DNA from: a virus
IMG/VR virus record: IMGVR_UViG_3300017782_000058
Length of the DNA stretch: 40,263 bases
Direction: 5' to 3' (one strand)
A program made the translations under genes and the position numbers. Shown here piece after piece: positions 1 through 23,756 of this stretch. The number at the start of each line of letters is the position of its first letter. The first letter of the stretch is position 1. The notes below the pieces were generated by a model, which saw only the letters and a program-made list of their open reading frames with translations, did no database searches and was not told the origin of the DNA.

Positions 1-123
1 GGTCTGCCATTGTAAGCGATTTTTGCTCCTGTTGCAATATGTTCAACGCTTGTGCAAAAACCTTTCTAATCTGCGCCCTTTCTGGTGGGCCTTGCGGTGC
101 TTCCTTTTGACCATCTAAATATA
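1..123. repeat. Terminal direct repeat, copy 1. This is a circular-contig assembly overlap, not a biological DTR.
   Basis: Bases 1..123 are letter-for-letter identical to 40141..40263. The repeat ends exactly at the window edge and lies inside a continuous coding frame. Confidence 0.95.
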
Positions 124-3100
124 CAGTCTGCATATTGCCTGATTTACGCAGTTCATCACCAATGCTCATTCGCTTTTGATTTGCTTTAGGCTCACCCAAT
201 GTGTCGGTAACTACCTTTGCATTGGCCTCAACTGTCATTGGTGCAATCTGTGCCATAGCTACACGATTAGCAGGCTTCATGCTTGACTTTTGAATTGCGA
301 CAGCAACCTCGTCAATGTTTGACATTTTGATTTTCATCTTAATGATTTTTTCAAATGCCGCTTTGTCTTCTTTAGTCATTCCCTTAATCAAAGATTTCAT
401 GGCCTGACGTTTTACTTTTGCTTGCTTACTGTAGTCAGTGATTAGCGTCCCGGTCATGCGGCCCCAGGTACGCATTAACCACCTGTCCATAGTTAGCTGC
501 TCAAAGTGACCGTATAGGTTTGCAAAGAAACCATTACCAATCTTTGGCCCCAGGATAGCTGCGCCATAAACCATTGTGGTTTTGTTTTCACCAGATACCT
601 TTTTCCCAGTGAATGCCTCTACCTCTTTGACAGAATGCATGGTGGTCATGAAACCTTCAAATGCTTCAAAACCATACTGGTCAATCATTGTGTTATAGAA
701 ATCTAGACCGCCATTAATTGCGATAGTTGCCGTGCCATCACCTATGTCAGTAGGCATACGGCCATCAGCTTTAAACTTAGCGTATGCTTTTTCTGCTAGC
801 TCAAAATTTTTGTTTACCTTTAATCCATTTGATGTGACAGCCAGAGCCCAGGTAAATGCAAACTTAGCTTCGGGATCGGTGGCCACCTCTGGATGTATAA
901 GAGAAACCAAACGTAGCGCCTTAGTAATCTTTTCATCGTACCAGCCAACAGCATTTGGATTTGTTTGAATAGCAAACAGCGCATCTGACAGCACCGCATC
1001 AACAAGATATTTTTCTGTTGCTACAGAGAAATCAGATAAATCAACACCAGCTGCTTTTGCTGCTGTATTAACTCGATCCTGGATTGCCACCTTTAGATCA
1101 CGGTTTGTTGCAAATTGCTGCGACCCAGCAAATTCAAAACTGTTTTCTAGTTTGCTAACATCTAGGACGCTATCAGGTACGGGCTTGCCAGGGCGTTGCT
1201 CTCTTCCTCTTTGATAGAACACGCCTTCATCAACTCTAGGCGATACTCGAGGCAGATCTGCCAGGCCAGCTTCAGCGTTAATAGCAGTCACTTCGTTATC
1301 AGATAGAACCCTGATCACTTTCATGCTGCCCGAAATCAACCAGTCACCGGTCATGTTTGGATTTGTTTTGTATCTATAATGACCATCATTTGGGATCTGG
1401 TCTGTGATGTGTGCAGTTCGAGGAATGATCTCCCCGTTCTTGTTTCTGGTTGCACGTTCATTAGCTGTAGTCTGCCAGTCAACGTCAGCTGGAAGCTCTA
1501 CTAATGCCCACACCTGGTTGTCTGGTCTGTAATCTGGCTTTGTTTTGTCACGGCTTGTTTTGCCACCAATATGGCTTGCCATTGGCAAATCACCAGAATG
1601 CCAGCCTGGTCTAAACGCCAGCTCTCCAATTTTAGATTTAACTTTTCCTGACGCTACTTGCGGCCCAACTTCTGCCTCAATCCATTCATTAGTTTTGACC
1701 GGTGTGTTTGCATTCACAAACAAGGGGAACAATTCACCTGGCCTGTTTGGATCGATACGAAATAATTTATATGCCTGGACAGTATCTCGAGGCTCTAGCT
1801 TTCCTTGTTGGAATAGCGTCTTACCTGTTGTTTCATCAATACCTGACTGCTGCGCTTGTTCAATAGCCACCGCATCTGTATTTGCTTGCTGCAATATGTT
1901 TGCAGTTTCATTTGACCATGTGCCGCTATTAAACTGTGATTTGATTGCTTTGTTATCAAAGATTACAATCTCATTAGAATTGTCTCGACCACCTGGGTTA
2001 TTAGGCATAATAACGCCATCGTAACCTTCTGCAACAAGCCTGTCTCTAAAACCATCAGCTGCCTTGCGGCCACCTACTCTGATCTCTTGTTTCTCTTCCA
2101 GGGTTGCTATGTATGGATTTTCCAACCGGGCAAACATCGGCATGATGTTAGCGCCAACACCATCATCAGGTATTCTGCCAGTTCTTTTCTTTTGTGCTTT
2201 TTGTTCAGCATAAATTTTTGCAAGGGTGGGATCGTCTGTTGCATATACCCCAGTGCCTAGCCATCCAGTATCGTTTCTGTTTGGATGTTCAAAATCAAAT
2301 GCCTCAATACTGTCTGCAGTCCCATGATAAATAACTTTTGGCGAACCATCTTCATTTACTAATTTTGACTGACCAAAAAATTCTATAAACTCCGGGGTGT
2401 CAAATCTTGCATTGCCATTGTTATCGAACAGCTGTTGAGCTGCCTGGGCTTCTGGTTGTGCCGGCGCTCTAGCAGCTTGCTGCTGATTAACAATCTTATA
2501 CATATATTCGCTGTAAAAATCGGCAGGCAATATGTTCAGTTCAGAGGATTGCGTTACAACAAAATCACGCACAAAGTCTGCATAATTAGACGCGACATTA
2601 TTTGTGTATGCGCCGGTAGCTTTAATTTGATCCAGAATACTTTTACGTACTTGTGCTGCGCTTTCTTTAAATCCTTCTATTTCTGCATTCTTTTCTTCGA
2701 CAATACGCAACGCCTCTTCTGTCATAGCCTGGCGGTCTTTAACAAACTGCGCCGCCTCTGTTGCGCTCATGCTGTCTTCAGTAACTCGCATATGTGGCTG
2801 CAATGCAGTACCTAGATCTGTGCCAGCAATTTTTGCTGCGTACTCGCCTGTTTGAATTTTTACATCACCCTGGCCACCGGTTGCGTTTATCTCTTTCAGC
2901 TCTTCGGCTACTTGTGGTGAAACTGCCTCGAGCTGTTCCATTGTCACGCCATTAGATTTTAGCTGCTGATTTAAAATTTCAGCATCAATGTAAATGTCAG
3001 TAACATCCTTGCCGTTTGCAGTGTTTTGTATAAACGCCTGGAAAGCAGTCGGGTTTCTTTTCTTTGTCTTGCTATCGTTTGACAGTGTTGACAATTGCTC

Positions 3101-4399
3101 AATAAATGCAGTCTCTCTTGTAGATGCTTTTGCTTTTGTGTAGTTGCTGTAAAAACTAACACTTGCACCGGGTATAGCTAGCAACGCCATACCTTTGCCA
3201 ACTTTTTCAAATATCCCTATTAGCCTGGCTGAAATCTGGGCTCTACCTTCTTCAGTGGCTCCCAGTGCCTCAAACTCACCTTCACTAAATTCTTTTGCTA
3301 TCTCCGCACCAGCAATAGCTGAGATCTCTTGCAGCACCTCTGTAGAAACTTCTGCTGTCCATGTCTTGGCATATGTGCCAGCAAATGCTGCAAATGCTCT
3401 TCCTGTCCCTGGCTTTTTCATTGCCTGGGCAACATCTTTTGTCACCCTTTTCATTAATGCTTTTTTAAATGGGGCAGCAACAACGCTGACGCCAACAACC
3501 TCGAGAGCCGCATTGACTATACCAACACCAGACGATGCGTATTGTGCAACATCTTTGTCTATGCCTTCTTCAATCATTTCTAAATATGAATGACCGCTTT
3601 CTATTACATAACTTTCTGCACCCATCTTTGCTACAAAGCCGGCAAAGAAACCGCCAACAAATGCGCTTGGTACTGTTATAATTTCTTCTGGTGTCGCAAT
3701 CTGTGGCCCAACTTGCCCGGCAATACCAACAGCTGTTGCATAAGACATACCAGTGCCCAGGCCAAACTCAAAAGCCTTGGGCATAGTCTTTGACATTTGG
3801 CCAACAAACTCTGATGCATTTTCCCAGAAACCAGCGCCATCACCCTCTAGCTCTTGGATACGGGAATTGATTTCTCCGATCCTAGCATCAATGTTTTCTG
3901 ATGATTGCCCTGTTTGTTTAAGATTGCCCAGCCTGCCCAGCTCATCCACTAGCCGGCCTTTCTCAAAGCCTTGTGATGTATTGTTTGGAATATTTACTAC
4001 CCCATCAAACACAGTCTCGAGAACGCCTAGTCTTTCTGTATCGTCATGAGCAATTGCTGCAAACGCTGGATCTCTTAATTGCTGTGCCAGGAACGGGCTT
4101 TGTTTAGCGAGGTTGTTTTGAAATATATCAATTTGTTTCTTTTTTTCTTTTAATTTATTGATAGCCTCATCGCTGTCTATTTTAACATCTGGTGGCAGAT
4201 TTAGGCTCTGCTGTATTTTCTGAGCCTCACCAACTTTATCGGGATCGTTATTAGAAACTGATGACAGCATCTTTTTAAGGATCGCATCACTCTCAGCATT
4301 TTCACGCTCTATTAATTTTTCAAAAGGATTGGCTTTTATTTCGCCATAGTTCTGGCTTGGAGCCGCATCAATTAATTTATCAAATGGATTGTCGGCCAT
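1..4399 (-). CDS. N-terminal 1,466 codons of a giant (3,146 aa) polyvalent internal-virion/ejection protein. The ORF continues across the circular junction into 35099..40140.
   Basis: This ORF is absent from the ORF track because it has no in-window stop. I translated the minus strand from the ATG at 4399, which lies 2 nt after the TAA of the 778-aa gene: MADNPFDKLIDAAPSQNYGEIKANPFEKLIERENAESDAILKK... The frame (first codon bases = 1 mod 3) stays open to position 1. It is in phase with codon 46, which equals 40186, and reads ...KVFAQALNILQQEQKSLTMADL, the same as the track ORF start. It contains an ART-like module (..VIYHGT..GTGVYAT..NEIVIFDNKAIKS) and hydrophobic helices. Confidence 0.9.
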   Translation of the reverse strand, partial: MADNPFDKLIDAAPSQNYGEIKANPFEKLIERENAESDAILKKMLSSVSNNDPDKVGEAQKIQQSLNLPPDVKIDSDEAINKLKEKKKQIDIFQNNLAKQSPFLAQQLRDPAFAAIAHDDTERLGVLETVFDGVVNIPNNTSQGFEKGRLVDELGRLGNLKQTGQSSENIDARIGEINSRIQELEGDGAGFWENASEFVGQMSKTMPKAFEFGLGTGMSYATAVGIAGQVGPQIATPEEIITVPSAFVGGFFAGFVAKMGAESYVIESGHSYLEMIEEGIDKDVAQYASSGVGIVNAALEVVGVSVVAAPFKKALMKRVTKDVAQAMKKPGTGRAFAAFAGTYAKTWTAEVSTEVLQEISAIAGAEIAKEFSEGEFEALGATEEGRAQISARLIGIFEKVGKGMALLAIPGASVSFYSNYTKAKASTRETAFIEQLSTLSNDSKTKKRNPTAFQAFIQNTANGKDVTDIYIDAEILNQQLKSNGVTMEQLEAVSPQVAEELKEINATGGQGDVKIQTGEYAAKIAGTDLGTALQPHMRVTEDSMSATEAAQFVKDRQAMTEEALRIVEEKNAEIEGFKESAAQVRKSILDQIKATGAYTNNVASNYADFVRDFVVTQSSELNILPADFYSEYMYKIVNQQQAARAPAQPEAQAAQQLFDNNGNARFDTPEFIEFFGQSKLVNEDGSPKVIYHGTADSIEAFDFEHPNRNDTGWLGTGVYATDDPTLAKIYAEQKAQKKRTGRIPDDGVGANIMPMFARLENPYIATLEEKQEIRVGGRKAADGFRDRLVAEGYDGVIMPNNPGGRDNSNEIVIFDNKAIKSQFNSGTWSNETANILQQANTDAVAIEQAQQSGIDETTGKTLFQQGKLEPRDTVQAYKLFRIDPNRPGELFPLFVNANTPVKTNEWIEAEVGPQVASGKVKSKIGELAFRPGWHSGDLPMASHIGGKTSRDKTKPDYRPDNQVWALVELPADVDWQTTANERATRNKNGEIIPRTAHITDQIPNDGHYRYKTNPNMTGDWLISGSMKVIRVLSDNEVTAINAEAGLADLPRVSPRVDEGVFYQRGREQRPGKPVPDSVLDVSKLENSFEFAGSQQFATNRDLKVAIQDRVNTAAKAAGVDLSDFSVATEKYLVDAVLSDALFAIQTNPNAVGWYDEKITKALRLVSLIHPEVATDPEAKFAFTWALAVTSNGLKVNKNFELAEKAYAKFKADGRMPTDIGDGTATIAINGGLDFYNTMIDQYGFEAFEGFMTTMHSVKEVEAFTGKKVSGENKTTMVYGAAILGPKIGNGFFANLYGHFEQLTMDRWLMRTWGRMTGTLITDYSKQAKVKRQAMKSLIKGMTKEDKAAFEKIIKMKIKMSNIDEVAVAIQKSSMKPANRVAMAQIAPMTVEANAKVVTDTLGEPKANQKRMSIGDELRKSGNMQTVYLDGQKEAPQGPPERAQIRKVFAQALNILQQEQKSLTMAD

Positions 4400-4401
4400 C
4401 T

Positions 4402-6738
4402 TTATTGTCCCAGACTTGATATATATTTGTCAGCCTCTGCTGCATTCTTAGGCCGATTAGCTCTGATCCACAATTCAGCAATCTTCTGTTCTGACACTGG
4501 AATACGTTTATTATTAAACCCAGATATAATTAGCGCTCGAACACCAGCTGGGATTGATGTCATATAAATTTGTTCACCGCCTACATTAACGTATGCATCT
4601 TCGAGCTGGTCAGGATCGAGCGATGATACAGGCACAGAGGGATCTCTGCCGAGCTCATCGAGCATAACTTTGTCCATAAGCAGATCATTTAAAATACCTT
4701 GTTTCTTGTCTCGACTTATTGGATTGTTGCCATTCTCAATTTGCGCCATGTCAACTCTGGTTTTCCAGGCTTCTGTAATTTGTATGTAATCCATTTTTTC
4801 TTTGTCATTGCCTTTGGACAGATCGTCAAAACCCATACGGTTTAATGTTGTGTCCAGCATATTGCCATCGACAGATGCCGATATAAAGTTTTTGCCCCCC
4901 TGGGTGCTAGCCTCAATACCAGCTGCTACAAATGATTTGTACTGGCTTTCGGATAACAGAGGTCTGAATTTTTCGATGTTTCCTGTAAGCATTAGAGAAG
5001 GGTCTTTTAAAATCTTGATAACAGTATCTGGATCATCGCCACGGTTCGGGCCTTCACGTAAAGCTGCTTTGTCTTCTGGCCTAATAGAATTCCATTGGGC
5101 CGGCGGTATATCTTGCCAGCCGCCTATTCTGGCAAACGCAACGTCTTGAGCTTGCTGGTGCATCTGAGAATAATTTGTTTCTTGAAAGTTTGTTTTCTCG
5201 GTATGCCAGGCTTTTATATATGTCTCAGCATGATCTAGCTTATCTGGATCTTTTATTGTGTCTCTAGCTTGCTTCAACATATCTTCTAATAAAGGCACAC
5301 CAGTGTTTTTATCTGTTCGGTACATTTGTTCTGCTGTCGTATAGCCTTCCCCACTTAAAGCGGTGTAGTCTACTTTTGACCCTATGAATGCTATATCGCT
5401 TTGCATTAGATCTACATGGTCACCTTTTGTGGTGGGCTGTAGAACGCCATCAATTTTTAATCCAAACTTGTTTTTTATTGCTTCGTTTGCAGCGAACATT
5501 GCTTTGTCTAAAACTACTGCAGGGTCACCCTTTTTGCCACCAGCATCTCTAAAAATTTTATCTGCAGCATTCACGCCTAATTTGCTTATAAGGTATAAAT
5601 GCATAGCCCGGTGCTCCGGTACTACACTCATATAGTCAGATGCGTTTTGCATAATCTGCAGTTGTTCTAATGCATCTTCCTGGTTCAGATCCATGACAGG
5701 AATACCATCATTCATGTGCAGCCCAAATCTAACCGGGCCACCAGCACCATCGTTGGCAAGGTATCCACTAGGCAATGTTTGTAAAAACTTAGCCTGGTCT
5801 TCATATATAAAACTGTTTGGATTACCTGTGAAATTTACAATTGATTTTCCTATATCTGTGCCAGCTTGCTTTTCATAGCCTGTTCTGATGGTTCCAATAT
5901 ATCTATTAGATACCTCGCTGCCTATCGTGCCTTGCTGCATATTAGTTTGCAGATATGCCATAGCTTTAAAATAGTCTTCATCAGCAACCATCGCGCCTAG
6001 TGCGCCTTCATGGATAGTGTCAAACGTACTCGCCATTAATTGTTTACGCTGCCAGCTGTCTTTTGATCCTTCAATATTTGGATCTTGTTTTTCCCAGCCC
6101 TGCTCATCTGCATAATCAGATGCAGCTTTTATAGCTGCTGCTGTATTGATTGTGTATTGACCAGTAGGGTCTGTCCAATCTTGATAGGCCATGCCAGCAT
6201 TTTTTGCTAACACGTTTACATGGGCTTTCTTTTCAGCATCAGCATACTTGCGCTGCTCGACAATAGAATGCCTGGCCATTGTGCTTGATGCGGAACGAAT
6301 AGAGCTGGCCGACATTGATTGAAGCATATACTTCTGTTTGTCGTTATCAGCTCGGTCTAAATATGAACCTAGCTTGCCTTCTAAATCGTTTATTGTCTGG
6401 TCAAAAACAGATATGGTAGCGCCTGTCTCGGGATCTTTACCCACCGACATAACAGCGCCTGGCCCTCTTGTAGATAGATAGTCTAGCTGAACGCCCTCGA
6501 GCTCGGTTGCAAACTCATTGTATAATTGTTTTGCTTTTGCATCATCCAGCTCATCTTGTAGCTGTCTAGAAATAATGCTTAATTGCTTGCCTTCTTTTTG
6601 TAGAGCCGCACCAAACTTTTGCTGGGATATTGCCTGATAGTTTTGTACCGGCGTAACACCTTGTCCTTGGAACCCTGCTGCTGATCCAACCTCTACGCCT
6701 ACTGTGGGTGTTTCCTGTAACGGTACTCTAGCCATCAT
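4402..6738 (-). CDS. Internal virion (core/ejection) protein, analogue of the T7 gp15 position
   Basis: A 778-aa ORF. It sits downstream of the nozzle and the small internal virion protein, and directly upstream (2-nt gap) of the giant ejection protein. I recognised no enzymatic motif. Confidence 0.55.
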   Translation of the reverse strand: MMARVPLQETPTVGVEVGSAAGFQGQGVTPVQNYQAISQQKFGAALQKEGKQLSIISRQLQDELDDAKAKQLYNEFATELEGVQLDYLSTRGPGAVMSVGKDPETGATISVFDQTINDLEGKLGSYLDRADNDKQKYMLQSMSASSIRSASSTMARHSIVEQRKYADAEKKAHVNVLAKNAGMAYQDWTDPTGQYTINTAAAIKAASDYADEQGWEKQDPNIEGSKDSWQRKQLMASTFDTIHEGALGAMVADEDYFKAMAYLQTNMQQGTIGSEVSNRYIGTIRTGYEKQAGTDIGKSIVNFTGNPNSFIYEDQAKFLQTLPSGYLANDGAGGPVRFGLHMNDGIPVMDLNQEDALEQLQIMQNASDYMSVVPEHRAMHLYLISKLGVNAADKIFRDAGGKKGDPAVVLDKAMFAANEAIKNKFGLKIDGVLQPTTKGDHVDLMQSDIAFIGSKVDYTALSGEGYTTAEQMYRTDKNTGVPLLEDMLKQARDTIKDPDKLDHAETYIKAWHTEKTNFQETNYSQMHQQAQDVAFARIGGWQDIPPAQWNSIRPEDKAALREGPNRGDDPDTVIKILKDPSLMLTGNIEKFRPLLSESQYKSFVAAGIEASTQGGKNFISASVDGNMLDTTLNRMGFDDLSKGNDKEKMDYIQITEAWKTRVDMAQIENGNNPISRDKKQGILNDLLMDKVMLDELGRDPSVPVSSLDPDQLEDAYVNVGGEQIYMTSIPAGVRALIISGFNNKRIPVSEQKIAELWIRANRPKNAAEADKYISSLGQ

Positions 6739-6745
6739 ATAATCC

Positions 6746-7408
6746 TTATTTTAGTTTCACGGTTGAAGGACTACCGCTAGCTGCTGGATTGTTGGCCAGT
6801 TGAGAGTACAGTTGAGCTGATTGCGTATCTTGATAATATCCGCGCATCATATTGCCAGCCCCTGTAAGCAGTGTCGTTGACATATTTAAAAAACTGTCGA
6901 TTGATTTAGCGCTAGCAAATGTGTTCCTTGCAGACATCCCAAGCATATCGCTAGCTATTGTAGTGTTAACGCCACGCAGACGCATATCGTTTGCTGCCTT
7001 AACTTTGTTACTATTCATTGTTAACAGATCAATTTCTTTCATAATCTCAGAGCTAGCAAAAGCATTTGCTGTACTGCCTACACTGATATCTATGCCCCTT
7101 GCACGCATCGATGTTTTGGCAGTTGATTTAGCTGCGCCTGCTTTGAGTGTCTGTATTTGAATTTGTTTATTGTATGCCCGGTAGATCTGTTGAGCTTGTT
7201 TTTCTTGCATCCGGCCAGTAATTTTTGCCATGTCTCGCTTGTGCTCTAGACTAAGCGCCTGGCTTTTTAACTGGTACTTTTTTGCTTCATCAGCGTAGTA
7301 CCCACCAAAAATAGAATTGATTGCACCACCAACTTGTAGGATTGGCCCCATCTCTGCAAAGCTGTCTATTGTACTTTGACTGAAGCCAAATGGATTTGCC
7401 GTAGACAT
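6746..7408 (-). CDS. Small internal virion protein, analogue of the T7 gp13/gp14 position
   Basis: A 220-aa ORF with a Gly-rich hydrophobic N-terminal segment (ILQVGGAINSIFGGYY) followed by a Gln/Lys-rich helical region. An AGAGG ribosome-binding site lies upstream. The function is assigned from position only. Confidence 0.5.
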   Translation of the reverse strand: MSTANPFGFSQSTIDSFAEMGPILQVGGAINSIFGGYYADEAKKYQLKSQALSLEHKRDMAKITGRMQEKQAQQIYRAYNKQIQIQTLKAGAAKSTAKTSMRARGIDISVGSTANAFASSEIMKEIDLLTMNSNKVKAANDMRLRGVNTTIASDMLGMSARNTFASAKSIDSFLNMSTTLLTGAGNMMRGYYQDTQSAQLYSQLANNPAASGSPSTVKLK

Positions 7409-7467: not shown

Positions 7468-7478
7468 TACGGGCACAC
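7468..7478 (-). promoter_or_regulatory. Variant copy (GTGTGCCCGTA) of the conserved strand-specific motif, in the nozzle / internal-virion intergenic region
   Basis: The minus strand reads TAG-TGTGCCCGTAACTGGG directly after the nozzle stop codon. It shares the 9-mer GTGCCCGTA with the copies at 13.4, 16.5 and 35.1 kb. Confidence 0.4.
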
Positions 7479-9940
7479 TATCCACCTATAGAAACTTCAA
7501 GCGTCACACCTATTACAGTAAGCGGAAGAGGATCTGTTTGCCTAATAAATATTTGTCCATTGTCTGCCCATGTCGGTGTGAGCATTATCTTAACGTCTTG
7601 TGTTTTAAGGTTAGGCGGCGTTCCATAGGGCTCTGTAGTACGCTGTTTAGCTTCTACCAGGTTCTGATCATTTGGCCCGGCAAAGATACCAGAGCTCTCT
7701 AAAACACGCAGCCATGCATGGTTTAAGTTCTTTACACGGCCCTGTCCAAACGCCTCTGTCTGTAGAGCTAAAGGCAACGTCTGTACATCACTGTTATATT
7801 CCAGGCCAACATGAACGACACTTGATGCCCGGTCTAATGTTATAGATCCGCCTGTTACCACTCTTTGCGGATGCACCGCACCGTTCTCGAGAATGCTAAC
7901 TGTTTTACCTTCCAGCCAATTCAAACCAGAAATAGTGTTTCTTGCCACCTCAAAGCCTGTTGTGGCGGTGTTCTGTAAGTTTGCTGGTATATCTCTATCT
8001 ATCTGCACATTGGCCTGTGTGGCGCTTACAGTGCTGATAATGGTGCATCTATAATATTGATCACCATCAACCAGGATAATCGCATCGCCAATATCTGATA
8101 AACTTGGTGGTGCATTAAATAAATTATAATTTGTTGTAGCTGTTAGCGTGTCACCTTTTGAATAACTAGCGCCATTCACCGTTACGTTTCGGGCAGTGTT
8201 TGTATTGATGCCGTTATAAGTGGCCCCTGCATCGACAAAGAAACTATCACGCTGGGTTTTAAATAATCTGGTTCCCATTCGTTCAATATATCTTTTTTCA
8301 ACGCCGCCTATTGTTCTTTTAATTACACAATAAACAACATCATCATCGCCCTCAGAGACTGTCGCAACGCTTTCAAACTTGCCATCTGTGTCATGCCAGT
8401 GCCATGCGCCTACAGTCTGTTCTGGGACGTATGTAAGGCCCAGCAATCTGCCTTGTGTATTGACCATCCAAACAATTGGTGTTGGTGCTTTAGCCAAGGC
8501 CATATCTATTATTCTGTAGTTATCGAATAGATGTGATGCACGCAGTGACAGATCTCCGGTGATAAAACCATTGGCCTGCCAGTTGTATCCCAGCTCTCTT
8601 ATATGACCACCACGGGATGCGGCATAAACCATACTATTATTAACGATCACTGGTTGAGCGTTTGATGCACCTACGTAAGACTGTGGTTTAACAGATATTG
8701 ATGTTGGTGTGATTGCATCACTGTTAACTGATTGCACGCGCCATTCTGCAGATCCTGTCATTAACAATAACTGGGTCAGCGGCACGATGTGTCTAATTGT
8801 ATTTGCTTCACGGGCAGCAACTCTAAACTCAATACGATCATCATCACGTATTGGTAAGCCGTATGACATATTGCTTTCAGTACCTGATTTAGTCATCCAA
8901 ATACTTTGTGGAGCATTATTAGTGCCGGCAAAAACTCTACGCTGCTCAAAATAGGATACAGCGCCCGGATAGTTGCCTGTCCCAACAAAATCATTTTCAT
9001 AGATTGGTGGTGTTCTAGAAAAGTCTGGGGATATATTAACGTCTTCGATGCTGTTTCCTGTTGTCTCACCAATGAAACCAAATATGCCGCCGACATCTTT
9101 ATAAACTCGATATCTAACTGCATTGGTTACTGAGTTCCATGAAATAGTATTTTTAGCACCCGACACAAAAATGTTATTTGTTCTTGATGCAGTATTTGAT
9201 TTAGCGCTTTCGTCAACCAGGTTAGCTGCAATAGCTGTTACGCAATACCGGTGCGTTTCATATGTGTCACTGTTTACGCTTTCTGATGATGGTATATATC
9301 GCGCTACACTGACGCCACCTGGCCTGCCAATAGGGCTGCCGAAATCAATATTGGTTACTTGCCACTGAGAAGCGCCAAGCCTTCTTAATTCTTTTGGAGC
9401 ATGATTAGGGTGCACCAGTGTCATCACATCAGCTGACTGCACGTAATGCACATCAAACAGCTCTGCTTCTAGATACGGCGATGGTATCTCGTATGTGTAA
9501 TCTGTAGGTAATGCATACCAGTAAGATGCATTTGGTGGTGTGTTGTTTGTATTGTCTGCAGTGCAGTAATAATTTACGCCACCTACTTTTGCTATGTCAC
9601 CTACATCGTAGGCTGTACTGCCACTCCAGGCAGCGCCATCTGCATATTGTAATGTTGACCCTTGTGTGTGAAACCTCATGTACTGATCACCAAGCTCGAT
9701 GACCATTGTTTGTGTGGTGTTAAATGTAAACGATAACAACCTTACAGACTTTGTGCTGTCTTTAACCTCATTAACATATGCAAAGCCTGGACGGTTTTCT
9801 GCCGGGCCTTGTGGCTTGGCTATAAAGTTACGCATCCTTGCCGCGCCCTGTTGATACTTGGCATCATCAATACGTCCGAACATTTCTGGCGAGATCTCAC
9901 CGCCTGAGAATGCCCTGTTAAATGTACGGGTATTTGGCAT
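7478..9940 (-). CDS. Tail tubular protein B / nozzle protein (T7 gp12-like)
   Basis: An 820-aa ORF immediately downstream of the gp11-like adaptor. Its N-terminus, FSGGEISPEMFGRIDDAKYQQGAARMRNFIAKPQGPAENRPGF, is typical of podovirus nozzle proteins as I recall them. Confidence 0.65.
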   Translation of the reverse strand: MPNTRTFNRAFSGGEISPEMFGRIDDAKYQQGAARMRNFIAKPQGPAENRPGFAYVNEVKDSTKSVRLLSFTFNTTQTMVIELGDQYMRFHTQGSTLQYADGAAWSGSTAYDVGDIAKVGGVNYYCTADNTNNTPPNASYWYALPTDYTYEIPSPYLEAELFDVHYVQSADVMTLVHPNHAPKELRRLGASQWQVTNIDFGSPIGRPGGVSVARYIPSSESVNSDTYETHRYCVTAIAANLVDESAKSNTASRTNNIFVSGAKNTISWNSVTNAVRYRVYKDVGGIFGFIGETTGNSIEDVNISPDFSRTPPIYENDFVGTGNYPGAVSYFEQRRVFAGTNNAPQSIWMTKSGTESNMSYGLPIRDDDRIEFRVAAREANTIRHIVPLTQLLLMTGSAEWRVQSVNSDAITPTSISVKPQSYVGASNAQPVIVNNSMVYAASRGGHIRELGYNWQANGFITGDLSLRASHLFDNYRIIDMALAKAPTPIVWMVNTQGRLLGLTYVPEQTVGAWHWHDTDGKFESVATVSEGDDDVVYCVIKRTIGGVEKRYIERMGTRLFKTQRDSFFVDAGATYNGINTNTARNVTVNGASYSKGDTLTATTNYNLFNAPPSLSDIGDAIILVDGDQYYRCTIISTVSATQANVQIDRDIPANLQNTATTGFEVARNTISGLNWLEGKTVSILENGAVHPQRVVTGGSITLDRASSVVHVGLEYNSDVQTLPLALQTEAFGQGRVKNLNHAWLRVLESSGIFAGPNDQNLVEAKQRTTEPYGTPPNLKTQDVKIMLTPTWADNGQIFIRQTDPLPLTVIGVTLEVSIGG

Positions 9941-9943
9941 TGG

Positions 9944-10627
9944 TTATCTCCCGGATGTCCAAGGGACGATATGTTCTACGCTAATTTGCCTGTGTGCGTT
10001 GTCTGATTTCTTTGCTTGCTGCATATATCCTTGCATCATAGATGTGCATCGCTTTGCCTCTGCAGTGCCCTGGTCACCTTTAATTACAGGCCCGGCTAAC
10101 ATCGATGCTAGATGCCATGAAAGTGTCATTGTGAACAATGAAGAAAATTTAGTGGTGTCGTTTACATATGCCTGGTAACGCAACATGGCATTTTTTTGGT
10201 TAGAATAAATTAACTGATTACCGCTATTGTCTATCTCTAATACAAATTGCTGCGGTGTATACTGGCCAGCTGAAATGGTTGGCGCATAGTTAGATGTTAT
10301 GCCGCCCGGTGTATCACCAGCTGACATTCTAGTAGCGTAATCATTTTGTGCTGATGGTGAGATCACTGCTACTGCAGACATCATATCGCTGGGTGCAATG
10401 TATGCATATTCCCATTGATTGTTTGTGTTTGTCGATGAAGCCAAGTTCCCACGTTTTGTTGCAAAATCCCAGGCGTGCATATCTAATAACGTGTCTCGAG
10501 CTATCGGATAAAATCTTGACGCATTCTGTGCCTGCGCTGAACCCTCTGGTGGGGACAGCGTTGCTATCGTTGCATCATCACCCAGGTGCGCCAGGGCAAG
10601 ATTGCAGATGTCAACTTCTGTTGCCAT
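9944..10627 (-). CDS. Head-to-tail adaptor / tail tubular protein A (T7 gp11-like)
   Basis: A 227-aa ORF. Its N-terminus, VDICNLALAHLGDDATIATLSPPEGSAQAQNASRFYPIARDTLLDMHAWDFA, parallels the T7 gp11 N-terminal pattern (VNDILASIGEPPVSTLEGD...QSRGWTFN). Synteny supports the call. Confidence 0.65.
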   Translation of the reverse strand: MATEVDICNLALAHLGDDATIATLSPPEGSAQAQNASRFYPIARDTLLDMHAWDFATKRGNLASSTNTNNQWEYAYIAPSDMMSAVAVISPSAQNDYATRMSAGDTPGGITSNYAPTISAGQYTPQQFVLEIDNSGNQLIYSNQKNAMLRYQAYVNDTTKFSSLFTMTLSWHLASMLAGPVIKGDQGTAEAKRCTSMMQGYMQQAKKSDNAHRQISVEHIVPWTSGR

Positions 10628-11399: not shown

Positions 11400-12419
11400 T
11401 TAAACCACACGGGCTTCTGTATTAACCAGGCTGTCCACTCTACGTAGAGGAACACCAAGGAATGAAAGATAGCTCTGTGGTGAACCAAACTGAGTAAGAC
11501 CTTCATTGATTGCTAGTACAGACTGCGACTTGTCGAGTGCTGAGATAGACAATCCTGAGTGAACAGATCTATTCATATAGAATGCTGCTCGGCCCATAGC
11601 CATGTTTGGAATACGATACAGTGCTTTAGCCATCATTTTCACCAAGGCTGTTGATGCAGCTGCGGCTTGTGTTCCAGAGCCAGTGTTAAGATCGCTGATA
11701 TCGATGTTTGCGATACGCACGACATAACGCCAGTCTTTAACAACCAAACCATTCTTCCACTGATAACGTGTAGCAAACGCTTGTAGGCGCGTGCCATCGC
11801 TATTGTAGACAGTCTGCTCACCAAGATCTTCGTGAGTTAGGCCAGCTTTCGATCCTTTAGGGAAAGGACAGTAAACCGTGTTGTCACCCCAGCATACTAA
11901 GAAAATTGAGGTGTTGTCTGAACCAGAGCCACCGGCATCTAAAATGTTCTGAGCATTGCTTGATGACAGATCTGAGTAACGAGGTGCTAGACCAAGAAAC
12001 TTTTTAGGATCTGTACCAGGGTTGCCATAGAAAATTGTTGATGCTTGTGTTTGGTTCATTGCTTCCAAGAAAGCAGTGTCTTCAGATAGGCGGAATTGCG
12101 CGGTGTTACCGTTCAACATTGCCAGATCTTTGTCCACTTCTGAACGTGCTTCAAGAATTCCACAAGCCTCATCAATCTGTGCTGTTGTTGATTTGCTTGA
12201 TGGAATACCTTGGTTCAGTGCACGCCAGTACACTTCTGGTAAACCAGTTCTGATAACTACACGTTCACCAGTGGGAAGATTACCTTCCTTGAAAACGCAG
12301 TCATCTAGGATTTCGTTGGACTGCGAAAGCAGTTCAGCGATGATCGGAACCCTACCATCAGGGTCACTTCTTTTAGCCCAGTCGGCCAAAGTAAGATTTG
12401 AGGTTGAGAGAGTAGCCAT
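11400..12419 (-). CDS. Major capsid protein (BPP-1 Bbp17-like)
   Basis: A 339-aa ORF preceded by an AGGAG ribosome-binding site. The motif LADWAKRSDPDGRVPIIAELLSQSNEILDDCVFKEGNLPTGERVVIRTGLPEVYWRALNQG is characteristic of this capsid family. The gene is flanked by the scaffold and cement genes. Confidence 0.85.
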   Translation of the reverse strand: MATLSTSNLTLADWAKRSDPDGRVPIIAELLSQSNEILDDCVFKEGNLPTGERVVIRTGLPEVYWRALNQGIPSSKSTTAQIDEACGILEARSEVDKDLAMLNGNTAQFRLSEDTAFLEAMNQTQASTIFYGNPGTDPKKFLGLAPRYSDLSSSNAQNILDAGGSGSDNTSIFLVCWGDNTVYCPFPKGSKAGLTHEDLGEQTVYNSDGTRLQAFATRYQWKNGLVVKDWRYVVRIANIDISDLNTGSGTQAAAASTALVKMMAKALYRIPNMAMGRAAFYMNRSVHSGLSISALDKSQSVLAINEGLTQFGSPQSYLSFLGVPLRRVDSLVNTEARVV

Positions 12420-12431
12420 ATTTTAGCTCCT

Positions 12432-13112
12432 TTATGTTTGCTGATTAGAATACAGTGCGTTGGCTAGGCCGGCGAAATCTTTTGGTGCTGATCTGCTTGC
12501 GCCTTCAGCTCCTTGAGATGATCCGACATAACTATCTTCACTGATTGCCTTACCGGCTCGGAACATAAACCGGATAACTTCCGGGTGGTTTCCAAGACCG
12601 CTTTCATGAAGCAGCGACCGCAAAGCATCAGTACCAAAGGCATCCAGGGATTTCTTTGCGACATCCAAGTTGCCAGCCAGCTGCTCACCACCGAATTCTT
12701 GATCGGTAGATGATTGCTGACCCCACTCGGCTTTCACACCCTCGAGGACTTTAGCTTGTTTGGCTTGTATAACAGGGGCCATCTTGTCTAATACTTTTTG
12801 TGCAGCGTCTTGTGACAAATTGAGTTCTTTAGCAACCTCACCGTAGGCTTCAACAACCTCGGCATCGAGAACCTGGGGCGCGTCAGCCACCTCAGTATTA
12901 AACTCGTATTTCTCAGGCGCAGTGTCCTGGTTACTATCACTCTCAACAGCGGCCCCATCCTGGGCTTGTTGGTCTGTTACACCTTCAGCTTGCTGCTGGT
13001 TTCCAGTATCTTCCACATTTACTGATTGCTCAGTCTCCGCAGCTTCTACTGGTTGCTGCGATGCGTTGCCTTCATTTGGTTGGTTGGCTTCCGTCATCAG
13101 CATCTCTGACAT
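12432..13112 (-). CDS. Scaffolding protein
   Basis: A 226-aa acidic protein with a Gln/Glu-rich N-terminus and a helical C-terminal half. It lies immediately upstream of the major capsid gene. Confidence 0.65.
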   Translation of the reverse strand: MSEMLMTEANQPNEGNASQQPVEAAETEQSVNVEDTGNQQQAEGVTDQQAQDGAAVESDSNQDTAPEKYEFNTEVADAPQVLDAEVVEAYGEVAKELNLSQDAAQKVLDKMAPVIQAKQAKVLEGVKAEWGQQSSTDQEFGGEQLAGNLDVAKKSLDAFGTDALRSLLHESGLGNHPEVIRFMFRAGKAISEDSYVGSSQGAEGASRSAPKDFAGLANALYSNQQT

Positions 13113-13648: not shown

Positions 13649-14019
13649 TCCTTGTACAAATAGTTTGCGATGTCTTGCCCTGACCTTGGACTTTCTTTTG
13701 CCGGCGCTTCATTGCCATACAATGATTTTGCGTTGTCCTTAGTCTTATCCATTGGGTCAATTCCCATAGCGCAGATCTGCAGCTCAAGACTTTTGCTTGT
13801 GCCATCCATTTCTTTTTTCTCGCTAGCAGTTTTTACATACGCCATTGCTTTGATCATCATCTCAGCACCAGCTGCCGGCAGTTGTTCTATGCCGAGCTTT
13901 GCTAGTTCTTCTTCGCCCAGGCGAATGCATAGACCATAGCTGTATGCTGATTGATCTTCATACTGTTCGCCTTCGCTGTATTGTTGTTCTGGTTCTTTTT
14001 TAAGATCGATTAAATCCAT
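13645..14019 (-). CDS. Hypothetical head-assembly-associated protein
   Basis: A 124-aa ORF with an acidic N-terminus. Its start overlaps the portal stop (14019) and its stop overlaps the start of the next gene by 4 nt. Confidence 0.5.
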   Translation of the reverse strand: MDLIDLKKEPEQQYSEGEQYEDQSAYSYGLCIRLGEEELAKLGIEQLPAAGAEMMIKAMAYVKTASEKKEMDGTSKSLELQICAMGIDPMDKTKDNAKSLYGNEAPAKESPRSGQDIANYLYKD

Positions 14020-15710
14020 TATCCTACCTCCAATGGTGATGGTGATTGATATCCGCTAAACTGGTTCATCACATCCATTAAAGCATTTTTGTCTGGCCCT
14101 GTTTGAGCGCTCGACAGTTTAGCTGCTGTCTCAGCTTGTTGTGCTTGCGCTTGCTGTTGTGCTTGCGCTGCTTGAGCTTCTGCACGGGCGTTACGTATCT
14201 TGGCCACTTGTTCACCAGGAATAATAAGCGATGGATCTACACCCAACATATCAGCATATTCATCTGACCAGTTGTCTGCATCAAACTTGTCTAACACTTC
14301 TGGTTTCATCTGTGCGACCATGCCCATGCTGTTCACATATCTGTCGATGCTGTTTGTTCCGATAGCACGCTGCGCCTGGGCAAGCATTGAAACAAATTCT
14401 ACATTTAGTTCCATGCCTTGCAGTTCTGGTGGTGCAGGCGGTATCAGATTGCTTTCGATCATTCGATTAAATGTAATATCAATCAGCGGATCTAACAGCT
14501 CATTGTGCAGCCTCTCCAGGACAGGGCCAAGCATCAATAGCTTTTCCTCATGCCTTTCTGCTACCTCTGTCGCTGTCATACGTGTGTCTGTTGCATTGGC
14601 TAGCATTAGGAACAGGTCTGCATAGAACGCACCGTTGATACGCCCTCTAACATCCTGGATATCCATAAGCAGATGCTGCAGATTTAGATTAACTTGGAAT
14701 GCTGTTTCTATCTTGCCTTGTTGGCCATCAACAAAAGTTACGCCGCCAGGCAAACTGTCTACATCTCTATTCTTCATGTAGCTTGGAACCTGTAGAGGTG
14801 GCTTTGTTTGATAGTCGATGCCTTGTGCTTTACGCAATTGCTCATGCTGCAGCTGCTTCACATCACCAAGCGCTTCCATACCTGGACTGTTTCCATATAT
14901 GTCACCACCTGATAAACCCCAGCGAGGTACGACAGCCGGGAAATCATTGTATCCGCTTTCACGCAACAGCTGCTCACTGTCACCACCAAGCTCAAAATAG
15001 CATGACTTGAATGCCATGTTCTTTGCGTCACGTTTACCTTTGTCACGCTCTCTGTCATCTCTTGGCTCGACAGCATGGATGATTGTAATCCATGTATCCA
15101 GGTTGCCCCGGTCATATAAATTTTTAACGGTTGTTGAACAGTTGTTGTAACCAAACTCCCTGACTAATTCACTAACAGTCTTTTGGAATTCTCTAAACAA
15201 CGTATTCACACGGCCCTGATAATCCTGACCGATAGCATACTCACCGACTGTTACCGGGTAATGATGGATAGCTGTTTTGTAATCAGGCAGTATCAATGAT
15301 CCGCCAGTACCGAATGCGCCCAGCTCTTCATAGATGCCATGCAGTGTTCGATACGTATTTGATTTGGTAAAGACTAACCGCATCCTGTCGGTGCAATCAT
15401 CTAACCATAGTTTGACTGGTTGGTATTTATTTAGATCTGGATCTGCAGTGCCTAGTCTAAACCAGGGTCTAGCTGGTGACGTTGCGCCTGCCATCATGCC
15501 TGCACCAAGTGTTCTCAGTGCTCGAGTTCCTGTGTTGTCATAGATAGAATTGTGGCGTCTATGTCCCTTGTTCCTATCTTGCTCGAAATAACGCCCGTTG
15601 CGAGGCAACAGATATGTCGTGATTTCTTGCCAATGTGACCACCAGGTTGCACGCTCAGATCTGAGGTGGCCCCAGCGCGTCAGTAGTTTTTCGCGCTTGG
15701 TTGTTGCCAT
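14019..15710 (-). CDS. Portal (head-to-tail connector) protein
   Basis: A 563-aa ORF. The N-terminus LLTRWGHLRSERATWWSHWQEITTYLLPRNGRYF and the Gln/Ala-rich C-terminal tail are typical of podovirus connectors. It lies in the packaging/head region downstream of TerL. Confidence 0.85.
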   Translation of the reverse strand: MATTKREKLLTRWGHLRSERATWWSHWQEITTYLLPRNGRYFEQDRNKGHRRHNSIYDNTGTRALRTLGAGMMAGATSPARPWFRLGTADPDLNKYQPVKLWLDDCTDRMRLVFTKSNTYRTLHGIYEELGAFGTGGSLILPDYKTAIHHYPVTVGEYAIGQDYQGRVNTLFREFQKTVSELVREFGYNNCSTTVKNLYDRGNLDTWITIIHAVEPRDDRERDKGKRDAKNMAFKSCYFELGGDSEQLLRESGYNDFPAVVPRWGLSGGDIYGNSPGMEALGDVKQLQHEQLRKAQGIDYQTKPPLQVPSYMKNRDVDSLPGGVTFVDGQQGKIETAFQVNLNLQHLLMDIQDVRGRINGAFYADLFLMLANATDTRMTATEVAERHEEKLLMLGPVLERLHNELLDPLIDITFNRMIESNLIPPAPPELQGMELNVEFVSMLAQAQRAIGTNSIDRYVNSMGMVAQMKPEVLDKFDADNWSDEYADMLGVDPSLIIPGEQVAKIRNARAEAQAAQAQQQAQAQQAETAAKLSSAQTGPDKNALMDVMNQFSGYQSPSPLEVG

Positions 15711-16038: not shown

Positions 16039-16506
16039 TTATATCTCCTTTGAAAAGATTATGTCTTGCACACCATATTTCATTCTCGGCAAGATAGCAG
16101 CTAAAGGTGTGTTTTCTTTTGCGTGCCATAGCATCAGTTTGCATCCGAGATCTTTTGCTTGTGTCTCTGTAGCCTTCATCATTCTCATGCCGACACTCAT
16201 TGCCCGGTATTCTTTTTTGATAAAGAGAAGATCGTTTGAGCATAGTTTCATATCCGCATAGTGCAAATGGTTGGTTACAAAGTTTACAGAATACCCTGCA
16301 AGCACATCTTCTTGCCAGGCTGCTAAAATGAATATCGTGCCCTGCTCTTCTGCAGCACGATACTTTTCTTCGTATGGCTTGAGCACCATCACATCCTTGT
16401 TAAGAGCTATCTCGTTCCAGTGCTCTTCAAATAATGTTTGTGCCTCGACCAACATTTCATCAACCGTGGCTGGCCTAATGTCTATCATAGGATACCCCAC
16501 TTTCAT
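16039..16506 (-). CDS. GNAT-family N-acetyltransferase
   Basis: A 155-aa ORF. ILAAWQEDVLAGYSV ... LFIKKEYRAMSVGMRMMKATETQAKDLGCKLMLWHAK fits the GNAT acetyl-CoA-binding core. Confidence 0.7.
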   Translation of the reverse strand: MKVGYPMIDIRPATVDEMLVEAQTLFEEHWNEIALNKDVMVLKPYEEKYRAAEEQGTIFILAAWQEDVLAGYSVNFVTNHLHYADMKLCSNDLLFIKKEYRAMSVGMRMMKATETQAKDLGCKLMLWHAKENTPLAAILPRMKYGVQDIIFSKEI

Positions 16507-17128
16507 CTAATTTAACTTCATCGTCATCAGTTACGGGCACGCCTGACATAGGAAACAGATTTGTTACTGCATCGAATATTATGTGCACCCTGTTGTCGTT
16601 ACCTTTATTGTCAGCGGTGTGTTCTTTCTTATGGTCAAACCACCACACATCCCCGACATTAAATTCCTGTCTCTGATCTCCACAGGTCTGGCTGCATCCT
16701 TTGTTGGACTGCAGTACCAAATGAAACCTGGAGTAATAATCTGCATACATTCCCTGATCATCGTGTGCGTCTACATGGCCACCTGGTTCCAGGTTAACCA
16801 CTAGCACCCTGCCTAGTTCTATCACCTCTAGCCAATCTAATACTGGCTTTAACAATGGCACTAGCTCATCTGCCAGGTAATCCATGCACGGGTAATCGTA
16901 TGCCCCTAGGTCAAACATCACATAGTAATGGCTCATCTTTAATGGGCCTCTTACAAATATGCATTTAGTATCTTTGTGTGCAGAGTTGCTGGCCTTCTGC
17001 CGTGCCTCTATCTCATCCCATAGCTCTGGCTTATCGCTCAGTAGCTTATTGAATGGCCCAACGTCTAACCCTGTCGTAATGCGAATAAAGTTATCATCGG
17101 GCTGTTTAGATCGACTTGTATGGATCAT
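16475..17128 (-). CDS. Aspartyl/asparaginyl beta-hydroxylase-family (cupin, 2OG-Fe(II)) oxygenase
   Basis: A 217-aa ORF. GGHVDAHDD...YSRFHLVLQS...GDVWWFDHKKEHTADNKGNDNRVHIIFD matches the H-x-D...H facial triad and the RxHxPL and FDxxxxHxxxN blocks of this family. Confidence 0.7.
   Translation of the reverse strand: MIHTSRSKQPDDNFIRITTGLDVGPFNKLLSDKPELWDEIEARQKASNSAHKDTKCIFVRGPLKMSHYYVMFDLGAYDYPCMDYLADELVPLLKPVLDWLEVIELGRVLVVNLEPGGHVDAHDDQGMYADYYSRFHLVLQSNKGCSQTCGDQRQEFNVGDVWWFDHKKEHTADNKGNDNRVHIIFDAVTNLFPMSGVPVTDDDEVKLDESGVSYDRH
16532..16545 (-). promoter_or_regulatory. Conserved strand-specific motif, exact copy (CAGGCGTGCCCGTA)
   Basis: The minus strand reads CAGGCGTGCCCGTAACTGAT, 25 nt upstream of the GNAT start codon. 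It lies inside the 3' end of the hydroxylase ORF. Confidence 0.5.
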
Positions 17129-18425
17129 GATCTTTTTTAATCGCCCTTTCTTGCGCTTTGATGTAAATGTCTTTCGGCTCTTGTTTAGCCACCGGGTGAG
17201 CGAATGTTAGGCATAGCGCATCAGCTAGATCTGGTGACCCGGCCCCCTGCAATCGCTTCTTAATTAAATCTTTGCTTTCGAGCACACGCCTACCAGAGCT
17301 GTCATACCAGTAGATGGGTGTAGCTAGTTCTTGTTTCAGTGCGCTATCATTCGGTATAGCTCCACCGAGCTCCACCCATTCTTTCATATCCCACCACATC
17401 TCAGTTCTACGATTGATGTGCAGCTCTGGCCGTGTAGCCTTTCCACCAAACGGTACTTCGATCACGCTGTAATCTAACTGACGCAACCTATCAATGACGC
17501 CTGACCCTGCCCCTGCATCTATGAATACTGCGTCCGGGTCATGCTCCTCTATAAGATTTGCCACCCGTGATGCCAGCTCCATATTATCGATGCCCCGATA
17601 AACAACAGGCTTAAATGCCTGTCTACCCTGACGCCTAAACACAACTGATCTATCATCACCAAACCTGGCTGGATCTACGCCCATGACTACAGGCGCATGA
17701 TCTACATCAGGCGCTTGATAAACACGTTGTGCTGCTAACTCTGCATCGGCCAATGAGATTAACTGGTCATCACCAGCTGCTGAGAAATCACATAGGTATT
17801 CCCTGGCAAAAGATGTTTCGGCCATGTCACGTTTTAAACGCTCAACCTCATCAGGATGCAAACTGTCTGTATCGTAAACGGTGTATCGAGATGCTGTCCA
17901 TCCCTCAAGGTCAACAGCTCTATGATACAGCTCACTAAATAAATTGATACCGCTTGGCGTGCCTATGAATACAGCCCAGCCCAGGCGGTCAGATAAAGCC
18001 GGCTGTACTATGTCATTCCATACCTCGGGTTTAATCTGCGCCACCTCATCTATTACAATCCCATCAACTCTCAAGCCACGCATGGCATCAGGGTTGTCAC
18101 CGCCAAACAATCTAATGATAGCCCCGTTGTGTTTAAACTTAACAAACAGATCGCCTTCATTGATATCGATTACGTTAGTTCTGCGTAGTGGCTCGAGCTT
18201 TTGTTTTAGCCTGGCCCATGCAATTGCTTTTGATTGTTTTAGGAATGGTGCAACATATAGAAACAAGGCCAGATCTTTGTCTGTCTTCATTGCCTTGTCG
18301 ATTAGCTCCATGATTGCTAGCTCGGTCTTGCCGGCCCTTCGGTGCAATGCATAGACGCTAAATCTTTGCCTGCTTTGGTGGCATTGTTTCTGCCATGACC
18401 TTGGGGCGTAATCTAACTTAATCAT
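17106..18425 (-). CDS. terL: Terminase large subunit
   Basis: A 439-aa ORF. It has a Walker A-like RRAGKT, a Walker B GIVIDEVA, and nuclease-domain acidic motifs (VMGVDPARFGDD, VFIDAGAGSG, DLADAL). Confidence 0.9.
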   Translation of the reverse strand: MIKLDYAPRSWQKQCHQSRQRFSVYALHRRAGKTELAIMELIDKAMKTDKDLALFLYVAPFLKQSKAIAWARLKQKLEPLRRTNVIDINEGDLFVKFKHNGAIIRLFGGDNPDAMRGLRVDGIVIDEVAQIKPEVWNDIVQPALSDRLGWAVFIGTPSGINLFSELYHRAVDLEGWTASRYTVYDTDSLHPDEVERLKRDMAETSFAREYLCDFSAAGDDQLISLADAELAAQRVYQAPDVDHAPVVMGVDPARFGDDRSVVFRRQGRQAFKPVVYRGIDNMELASRVANLIEEHDPDAVFIDAGAGSGVIDRLRQLDYSVIEVPFGGKATRPELHINRRTEMWWDMKEWVELGGAIPNDSALKQELATPIYWYDSSGRRVLESKDLIKKRLQGAGSPDLADALCLTFAHPVAKQEPKDIYIKAQERAIKKDHDPYKSI

Positions 18426-23520: not shown

Positions 23521-23756
23521 GCGCCAAGAAACCTTCTCAATGTGAGTTAATCCTCGAACACCTGGAGAACGAGGGGCCGCTAACGCCCCTCGATGCTCTT
23601 AATCTATTTGGTTGTTTTCGTCTTACGTCTAGGATCTGGGATCTTAAACAAGATGGGCATGACATCCAAACGGCAACGAAAAATTTGCCAAACGGTAAAT
23701 CAGTGGCCGTATATTCACTGATAAAAAAAACTAAACAAGGAGTATTACCATTATGA
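23517..23756 (+). CDS. Winged-helix DNA-binding protein (HTH_39-like)
   Basis: A 79-aa ORF. ILEHLENEGPLTPLDALNLFGCFRLTSRIWDLKQDGHDI ... VAVYSL is the pattern I associate with the HTH_39 helix-turn-helix family. Confidence 0.6.
   Translation: MSAKKPSQCELILEHLENEGPLTPLDALNLFGCFRLTSRIWDLKQDGHDIQTATKNLPNGKSVAVYSLIKKTKQGVLPL

Follow-up and report, generated by a model that had tools for sequence, protein, structure and literature searches.

We analysed IMG/VR virus record IMGVR_UViG_3300017782_000058, a stretch of 40,263 nucleotides (hereafter the window), and find that residues 670-830 of a 3146-aa protein encoded on its minus strand are probably a catalytically intact ADP-ribosyltransferase (ART) of the ART-PolyVal family, with a diphtheria toxin (DT)/PARP-like H-Y-[E/D] active site and predicted activity, carried inside an internal virion protein (IVP). 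A first-pass annotation of the letters alone had proposed such a module at positions 1930-2430, within an ejection protein. Minus-strand translation yields the peptide it quoted, FDTPEFIEFFGQSKLVNEDGSPKVIYHGT ... NEIVIFDNKAIKSQF, exactly, and the residue numbers are correct as given (H692 codon 2324-2326, E810 codon 1970-1972). Counted from M1 (4397-4399), the proposed interval corresponds to aa 657-824 of the giant protein; the peptide was correctly located, but the conserved domain is slightly wider, at aa 670-830 (1910-2392).

Membership of the ART-PolyVal family is well supported by profile searches. Pfam family PF18760 matches with an E-value of 9.7e-20 and 72.2 bits against a curated gathering cut-off of 31.2, covering profile positions 1-135 of 140 in an envelope of aa 682-824 (window 1928-2356), which bears out the family named beforehand. 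An exhaustive HMMER search with the domain matched 7002 representative clusters at E ≤ 1e-3, of which 1497 remained at E ≤ 1e-10, the matching proteins being mostly 2000-5000 aa long and often carrying the domain in many copies. Against PDB sequences, a single-sequence search gave chance matches only and ARTs were reached solely by the family profile, for which exotoxin A ranked top (E 0.004), with weaker matches to Cholix toxin, DT, PARP4, PARP10 and PARP12. In the exotoxin A alignment YHGT is paired with GYHGT and GxYFTxDPxxAxxYA with GFYIAGDPALAYGYA, while the PARP4 segment GYDSV...DDEFVVYKTNQVK aligns with the C-terminal half of the domain, GYDGV...NEIVIFDNKAIK (E 0.2-0.4, not significant alone).

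The predicted structure agrees with this assignment. An AlphaFold2 model built on 80 sequences (pLDDT 90.2, pTM 0.86) has a six-strand core in the order b1(H)-b2(Y)-helix-b3-helix-b4-loop-b5(E)-b6 (boundaries in Table 1). As the first-pass annotation would have it, the model resembles known ARTs: all 50 of the 50 PDB matches listed by Foldseek are ART-fold proteins (E ~1e-3, TM 0.33-0.48), among them RES, MbcT, diphtheria toxin, tankyrases, ParT and AcrIF11. Against BFVD, a collection of predicted viral structures, 87 matches were obtained at E ≤ 1e-3, many labelled ART-PolyVal and with TM values up to 0.81. Sequence, predicted fold and architecture thus agree in making it a genuine member of ART-PolyVal, and it shows every testable defining feature of the family, which residue is third in the catalytic set being the one exception.

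In alignments and model alike, H692, Y719, Y730 and E810 appear to occupy the classical H-Y-Y-E positions of the DT/PARP clade. H692 aligns with the His of exotoxin A GYHGT, Y719 with the Tyr of GFYIAG and Y730 with the Tyr of YGYA, residues that we take to be H440, Y470 and Y481 in standard numbering; E810 aligns with the Glu of PARP4 DDEFVVY, presumably its catalytic Glu. Conservation was scored chiefly over 214 domain copies out of the 150 best proteins. H692 is His in 212 of these (and in 36/36 and 75/77 copies of other sets), D794 is Asp in 213, and K820, S821, N824, G826 and P762 are near-invariant. The Y719 position holds Y in 161 copies and F or W in 48, and the E810 position E in 159, Q in 15 and D in ~12; in another set, made up of 80 proteins that are mostly short, Glu stands at E810 in only 29 copies and Asp at D794 in 79. 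Among the 65 copies at least 45% identical, H692, Y719 and D794 are kept in 65/65, E810 in 64/64 non-gap positions and Y730 in 63/65. The H-Y-E type proposed from the sequence is accordingly right for this subclade, but E810 varies across the family, whose describers give H-Y-D; likewise, of the expected retention of H, Y and E among homologues, H692 is found throughout and all three in close copies, but Y719 and E810 vary in distant ones.

The published active site comprises H in strand 1, Y in strand 2 and D in strand 5, and places the family with Tox-ART-HYD2 (PMC5512222). Its Asp may be D794 or the Asp found at position 810 of some members. D794 precedes strand 4 of our model, but heads "strand 5" if a short strand at aa 763-764 is counted, and it is by alignment the better-conserved acid of the two.

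The protein that carries the domain is interrupted by the ends of the window. Bases 1-123 recur as an exact copy at 40141-40263, a 123-bp direct repeat at both ends; the window is accordingly an assembly of circular or permuted type, and the genome measures 40,140 bp. The giant gene starts with an ATG 2 nt past the stop of the upstream 778-aa gene and runs from 4399 to 1 and then, in frame, from 40140 to 35099; the giant protein described in the first pass is therefore real but longer than was seen there, at 3146 aa over the circular junction. A 1695-aa TTG open reading frame (ORF) listed at 35099-40186 is its in-frame C-terminal half; we considered and rejected it as a separate gene, the giant gene being merely split by the window boundary. 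That both pieces form one protein follows from a single PHROG profile, phrog_9880 (2231 positions), which spans them, matching aa 244-664 (profile positions 288-679) and aa ~1809-3142 (positions 910-2229; 1029 bits). Neither half matches an NCBIfam family, and a megablast search of the giant gene against 50,697 phage records returned nothing. Base composition gives no sign that the ART and other modules were recently acquired, their GC content of 0.41-0.52 being unremarkable beside 0.44 for the genome.

The giant protein is supported as an IVP-D-type ejection protein, on the combined grounds of gene order and scaffold homology, in keeping with the label of the first-pass annotation. The virion genes of the window follow one another on the minus strand in the order of T7 gp11-gp17, with the giant gene at the place of T7 gp16: it follows the genes for tail tubes A and B and the 220-aa and 778-aa proteins, and precedes that for the tail fibre. 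Bbp10 of Bordetella phage BPP-1 occupies the same kind of cassette, preceded by genes for tail proteins, for an internal virion protein and for a protein that bears a transglycosylase, and is itself listed as an IVP-D (T7 gp16) homologue by Hardies et al. (PMC4819975, Table 2). By blastp the giant protein matches Bbp10 at E 9e-132 and 3e-24, the alignments covering aa 49-729 (Bbp10 50-671) and aa 1803-2959 (Bbp10 717-1885), and in tblastn the C-terminal 1254 aa match 49 phage records, including BPP-1 Bbp10 at E 8e-104. Hydrophobic, membrane-span-like segments flank the whole protein (aa 239-309 and 2981-3113): two lie in the N-terminal scaffold (aa 239-257 and 291-309) and three in the C-terminal scaffold (aa 2981-3003, 3029-3047 and 3091-3113). 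The polyvalent character suggested earlier is borne out by a large polyvalent-protein-associated domain, LPD22, near the N-terminus (Pfam E 8.8e-15, 55 bits against a cut-off of 28.6) and by an HExxH motif downstream. The window also codes for a Bbp19-like protein.

ART-PolyVal domains also occur in proteins of other phages. Pseudomonas phage F116 p60, another listed IVP-D, has one at aa 530-675. ORF173 of Dickeya phage LIMEstone1 (3944-4402) is a 152-aa stand-alone homologue annotated "confirmed structural protein", and ~180 Ackermannviridae-type records (Salmonella, Escherichia, Dickeya) bear a stand-alone ART gene like it. The closest cultured relative is Limnohabitans phage DC33 (PQ492659.1, 39 kb); in its orthologue of 3125 aa the ART spans aa 652-799. 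The genes of DC33 are annotated as "hypothetical protein" only, and its record says Inoviridae, an ill-fitting assignment for a genome with so large an orthologue of a podovirus ejection protein, placed in the same tail/IVP gene order as in the window.

Between the two scaffolds lies a cargo block of which the ART is the first unit. Some 1100 aa are inserted in the giant protein, because the scaffolds aligned by blastp are only ~45 aa apart in Bbp10; the ART profile does not match Bbp10. Among ART-bearing relatives (2100-3400 aa), the N-terminal scaffold with the ART (aa 1-~840) and the C-terminal scaffold (aa ~1845-3146) are always present, the constancy of the ART being by construction as these relatives were picked by ART matches, and presence varies for the modules at aa 873-1052, 1055-1546 and 1559-1817. 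Tallies of organisms in the tblastn results suggest that scaffold homologues identified independently of the ART, in Bordetella, Xanthomonas and Vibrio phages, are without it. PDB sequence searches with aa 1055-1546 and aa 1559-1845 gave no match.

Module 2 of the cargo (aa 873-1052) has the look of an enzyme, and it could be argued that less is understood of it than of the rest of the giant protein. Its family has 364 matches, typically 55-69% identical, with 44 invariant columns in 40 sequences and the motifs RPGWHxGD, ATHIGG, VWAEVE, DVDWQ and GGHYRYKTNxNM; the module is missing from most orthologous giant proteins. No Pfam or NCBIfam family matches it, and its AlphaFold2 model (pLDDT 89) has no significant fold match in the PDB. 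We rejected the idea that it is a second divergent ART, as hhalign against the ART alignment gave a probability of 1.6%, and dismissed fold matches to DT, cholix and exotoxin A (probability <0.1, TM ≤0.29).

Just after the cargo, a putative zincin-type HExxH motif (HETAH: H1869, E1870, H1873) is followed by conserved E1924 and E1931. The motif and these glutamates are kept in 32-34 of 38 relatives and are the counterpart of HESGH at position 797 of Bbp10, whose aa 700-1000 were used to seed the CLCA_X family of zincins (PMC3650047).

Table 1. Features of the giant protein and of the surrounding window. Residues are those of the 3146-aa protein.
Feature	Residues	Window coordinates	Strand	Remarks
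Giant gene, N-terminal 1466 codons	1-1466	1-4399	minus	ATG 4397-4399; runs off window start
Giant gene, C-terminal part	1467-3146	35099-40140	minus	in frame over circular junction; stop 35099-35101
N-terminal scaffold	1-660	2420-4399	minus	homologous to Bbp10 aa 50-671
LPD22	44-136	3992-4270	minus
ART-PolyVal domain	670-830	1910-2392	minus	Pfam, predicted fold, alignments
ART model strand 1	690-694			contains H692
H692 (YHGT)	692	2324-2326	minus	strand 1
ART model strand 2	718-721			contains Y719
Y719 (GxGvYaT)	719	2243-2245	minus	strand 2
ART model helix	724-739			contains Y730
Y730	730	2210-2212	minus	11 residues after Y719
ART model strand 3	751-757
ART model long helix	767-790
D794 (GYDGV)	794	2018-2020	minus	just before strand 4; near-invariant in family
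ART model strand 4	795-799			D794 just before
ART model variable loop	800-808
ART model strand 5	809-813			contains E810
E810	810	1970-1972	minus	start of strand 5, after variable loop
ART model strand 6	819-821			contains K820-S821
K820-S821 ... N824-x-G826 motif	820-826	1922-1942	minus	strand 6 and after; invariant in family
Cargo module 2	873-1052	1244-1783	minus	highly conserved family, mostly free-standing ~200-aa proteins elsewhere
Cargo module	1055-1546	2-1237 + 39902-40138	minus	common to only some relatives
Cargo module	1559-1817	39089-39865	minus	common to only some relatives; conserved-looking LFRAVHDAFGHG patch (phrog_3170)
C-terminal scaffold	1845-3146	35102-39007	minus	homologous to BPP-1 Bbp10
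HETAH, putative zincin-type HExxH	1869-1873	38921-38935	minus	just after cargo
E1924 and E1931	1924-1931	38747-38770	minus	E1924 codon 38768-38770
Small terminase		18418-18882	minus
Large terminase		17106-18425	minus
Portal		14019-15710	minus
Protease		12432-13112	minus
Major head protein		11400-12419	minus
Tail tube A		9944-10627	minus
Tail tube B		7478-9940	minus
220-aa protein		6746-7408	minus	matches "internal virion protein" phrog_418
778-aa gene		4402-6738	minus	IVP-C/Bbp11 position
Tail fibre		33912-35030	minus	immediately downstream of giant gene
1877-aa virion structural or fibre protein		28265-33898	minus
Assembly overlap		40141-40263	none	exact copy of window 1-123

These features suggest how the domain might act, in a scheme whose steps draw on T7 and N4 biology and on comparative papers. 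A few copies of the giant protein would be packed in the capsid core and ejected via the tail at infection, as for T7 gp16, with the hydrophobic N- and C-terminal segments helping to form a trans-envelope conduit. The cargo would thereby reach the cytoplasm, either tethered or released by the protein's own zincin or by the prohead protease, where the ART could use host NAD+ to mono-ADP-ribosylate a host macromolecule ahead of any phage gene expression. By analogy with T4 Alt, the outcome may be host takeover or anti-defence. Hardies et al. propose that IVPs bear "passenger domains for intracellular function" bound for the cytoplasm (PMC4819975), and ARTs within injected polyvalent proteins, like the T4 Alt precedent, have been described (PMC5512222, PMC9503650). 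No gene for a macro, ARH or immunity-type partner was seen in Pfam and PHROG scans of the main and the 100-to-220-aa ORFs of the window, a few small ORFs falling outside these scans.

Several observations weigh against an active, injected ART. The PDB fold matches are distant, with TM <0.5, and the best two are NAD+-degrading toxins, RES 9r35 (E 8e-4) and MbcT 6fkg (E 1e-3), not transferases. E810 is poorly kept in distant members, where Q, D, S, T or H may replace it (36-74% Glu family-wide), and Y719 is often F or W in the family; because these two positions vary, the chemistry may perhaps rest on H692, D794, K820 and S821, unlike that of model ARTs. The giant protein's presence in virions, its ejection, its topology in the membrane and its release by proteolysis are predictions made from synteny and homology, and the zincin is putative, its call combining the conserved motif with a sub-threshold Pfam match to Tox-MPTase4 (E 0.087), Pfam giving nothing significant for the C-terminal half of the giant protein. 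Finally, our literature searches turned up no experimental work on any ART-PolyVal member.

Other roles for the domain were also considered. Modification of nucleic acid in the manner of DarT or Tpt1, with the end of the incoming phage DNA, host DNA or RNA as substrate, would suit a domain that passes the same channel as DNA and belongs with an H-Y-E clade that includes the DNA-modifying DarT (PMC9503650); we nevertheless think it unlikely, as no DarT or Tpt1 chain is present in the top 50 fold or sequence matches and the describers of the family predict protein targets (PMC5512222). The two leading fold matches, together with the dispensability of the canonical Glu in many family members, could instead point to an NAD+-consuming glycohydrolase or phosphorylase that resembles RES or MbcT and alters host NAD+ pools on entry. 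We give this a low probability: the motifs align with those of the transferases exotoxin A and PARP4 and not with RES-type residues, about four enzyme copies per infection (a copy number inferred from IVP-D, PMC4819975) would deplete NAD+ slowly, and NAD+ loss is generally an abortive-infection defence tactic, harmful to the phage. Just as speculative is a version in which the ART remains tethered where the ejectosome opens into the cytoplasm and, jointly with module 2, modifies whatever the incoming DNA end encounters (a nuclease, a sensor of restriction or defence) or that DNA, by means of the non-canonical set H692, D794, K820 and S821.

That the domain has no catalytic activity and serves the ejectosome as a structural or binding module seems very improbable: distant copies in multi-copy proteins do lose Y719 or E810, but the candidate active-site residues are retained here and in the 65 close copies, and the ~99% conservation of H692 and D794 over hundreds of copies appears typical of enzymes. 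Action ahead of ejection, directed at phage proteins while the particle assembles or within the capsid and not at the next host, is scarcely to be expected either, for although gene order suggests that the protein is made late with the structural genes while cytoplasmic NAD+ is available, its fusion to an ejected scaffold would then be hard to explain and the logic of polyvalent proteins and IVP passengers favours delivery (PMC5512222, PMC4819975). A delivered, catalytically intact ADP-ribosyltransferase is the reading we prefer.

Some further features of the window deserve mention. The large terminase and portal genes flank those for a GNAT acetyltransferase and an Asp/Asn beta-hydroxylase-like protein (16039-16506 and 16475-17128, minus strand); a resemblance of T7 IVP-A to acetyltransferases has been noted (PMC4819975). 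A YqaJ-like exonuclease and RecT recombination pair (23753-25575) are the sole sizeable plus-strand genes. The 1877-aa protein at 28265-33898 has sub-threshold matches to an endosialidase beta-barrel and to E1 FCCH, and repeated matches to phrog_5838.

That injected polyvalent proteins or IVPs may hold ARTs was already proposed in print in 2016-2017, and databases label such domains; the present finding is well supported, is of an expected kind and leaves the current picture unchanged. What the window offers is a clean, single-copy and apparently active (predicted) ART-PolyVal in an uncultured 40-kb podovirus, with a clearly delimited insertion point in the ejection scaffold, and so a convenient candidate for first biochemistry on a large uncharacterised family (>7000 clusters). 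Should the domain prove active, this would show that podovirus ejectosomes bring in host-modifying enzymes in cis, in line with the proposals of Iyer et al. and of Hardies et al.

Compared with known systems, T4 Alt provides a functional precedent, as an ART delivered with DNA to modify host proteins. Its clade is R-S-E, however, and it exists as an internal head protein in its own right, outside any ejection protein that forms a tail tube. The domain here is not of that clade (Arg in strand 1, S-T-S, ExE in strand 5), strand 1 having His (YHGT) and there being no ExE, and no R-S-E toxin is found among the top sequence or fold matches. BPP-1 Bbp10 and T7 gp16 share the genomic position of the giant protein; the scaffolds and HExxH position of Bbp10 are homologous to those here, and the likeness to T7 gp16 comes via position and Bbp10. 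Bbp10 (2052 aa) differs in lacking the ART, with ~45 aa in place of the cargo. F116 p60 likewise carries an ART-PolyVal inside an IVP-D-type protein, but the two ARTs are only ~28-31% identical and the scaffold and cargo set are different. With DT, exotoxin A and the PARPs, the domain shares the six-strand core and the order and spacing of the motifs HG[ST], GxYF[AST], Y-x10-Y, [YH]D[SG]V and an E-hydrophobic strand; sequence E-values are marginal (0.004-0.4) and TM values low (<0.5), and the domain differs in having a long additional helix separating strand 3 from strand 4 and family-specific invariant K-S and N-x-G motifs. The closest parallel is the ART-PolyVal family itself, whose prototype lies in the virion RNA polymerase protein of Roseovarius Plymouth podovirus 1 (Iyer et al. 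2017; PMC5512222): sequence family and fold are the same, as is the setting, a very large virion protein of many domains, LPD and (here putative) zincin modules among them. The prototype's protein is a virion RNA polymerase, of which there is none here, and our scaffold is of the Bbp10/epsilon15-type IVP-D and not N4-type; against the published H-Y-D triad, the strand-5 acid here is a Glu (E810), accompanied by the invariant D794.

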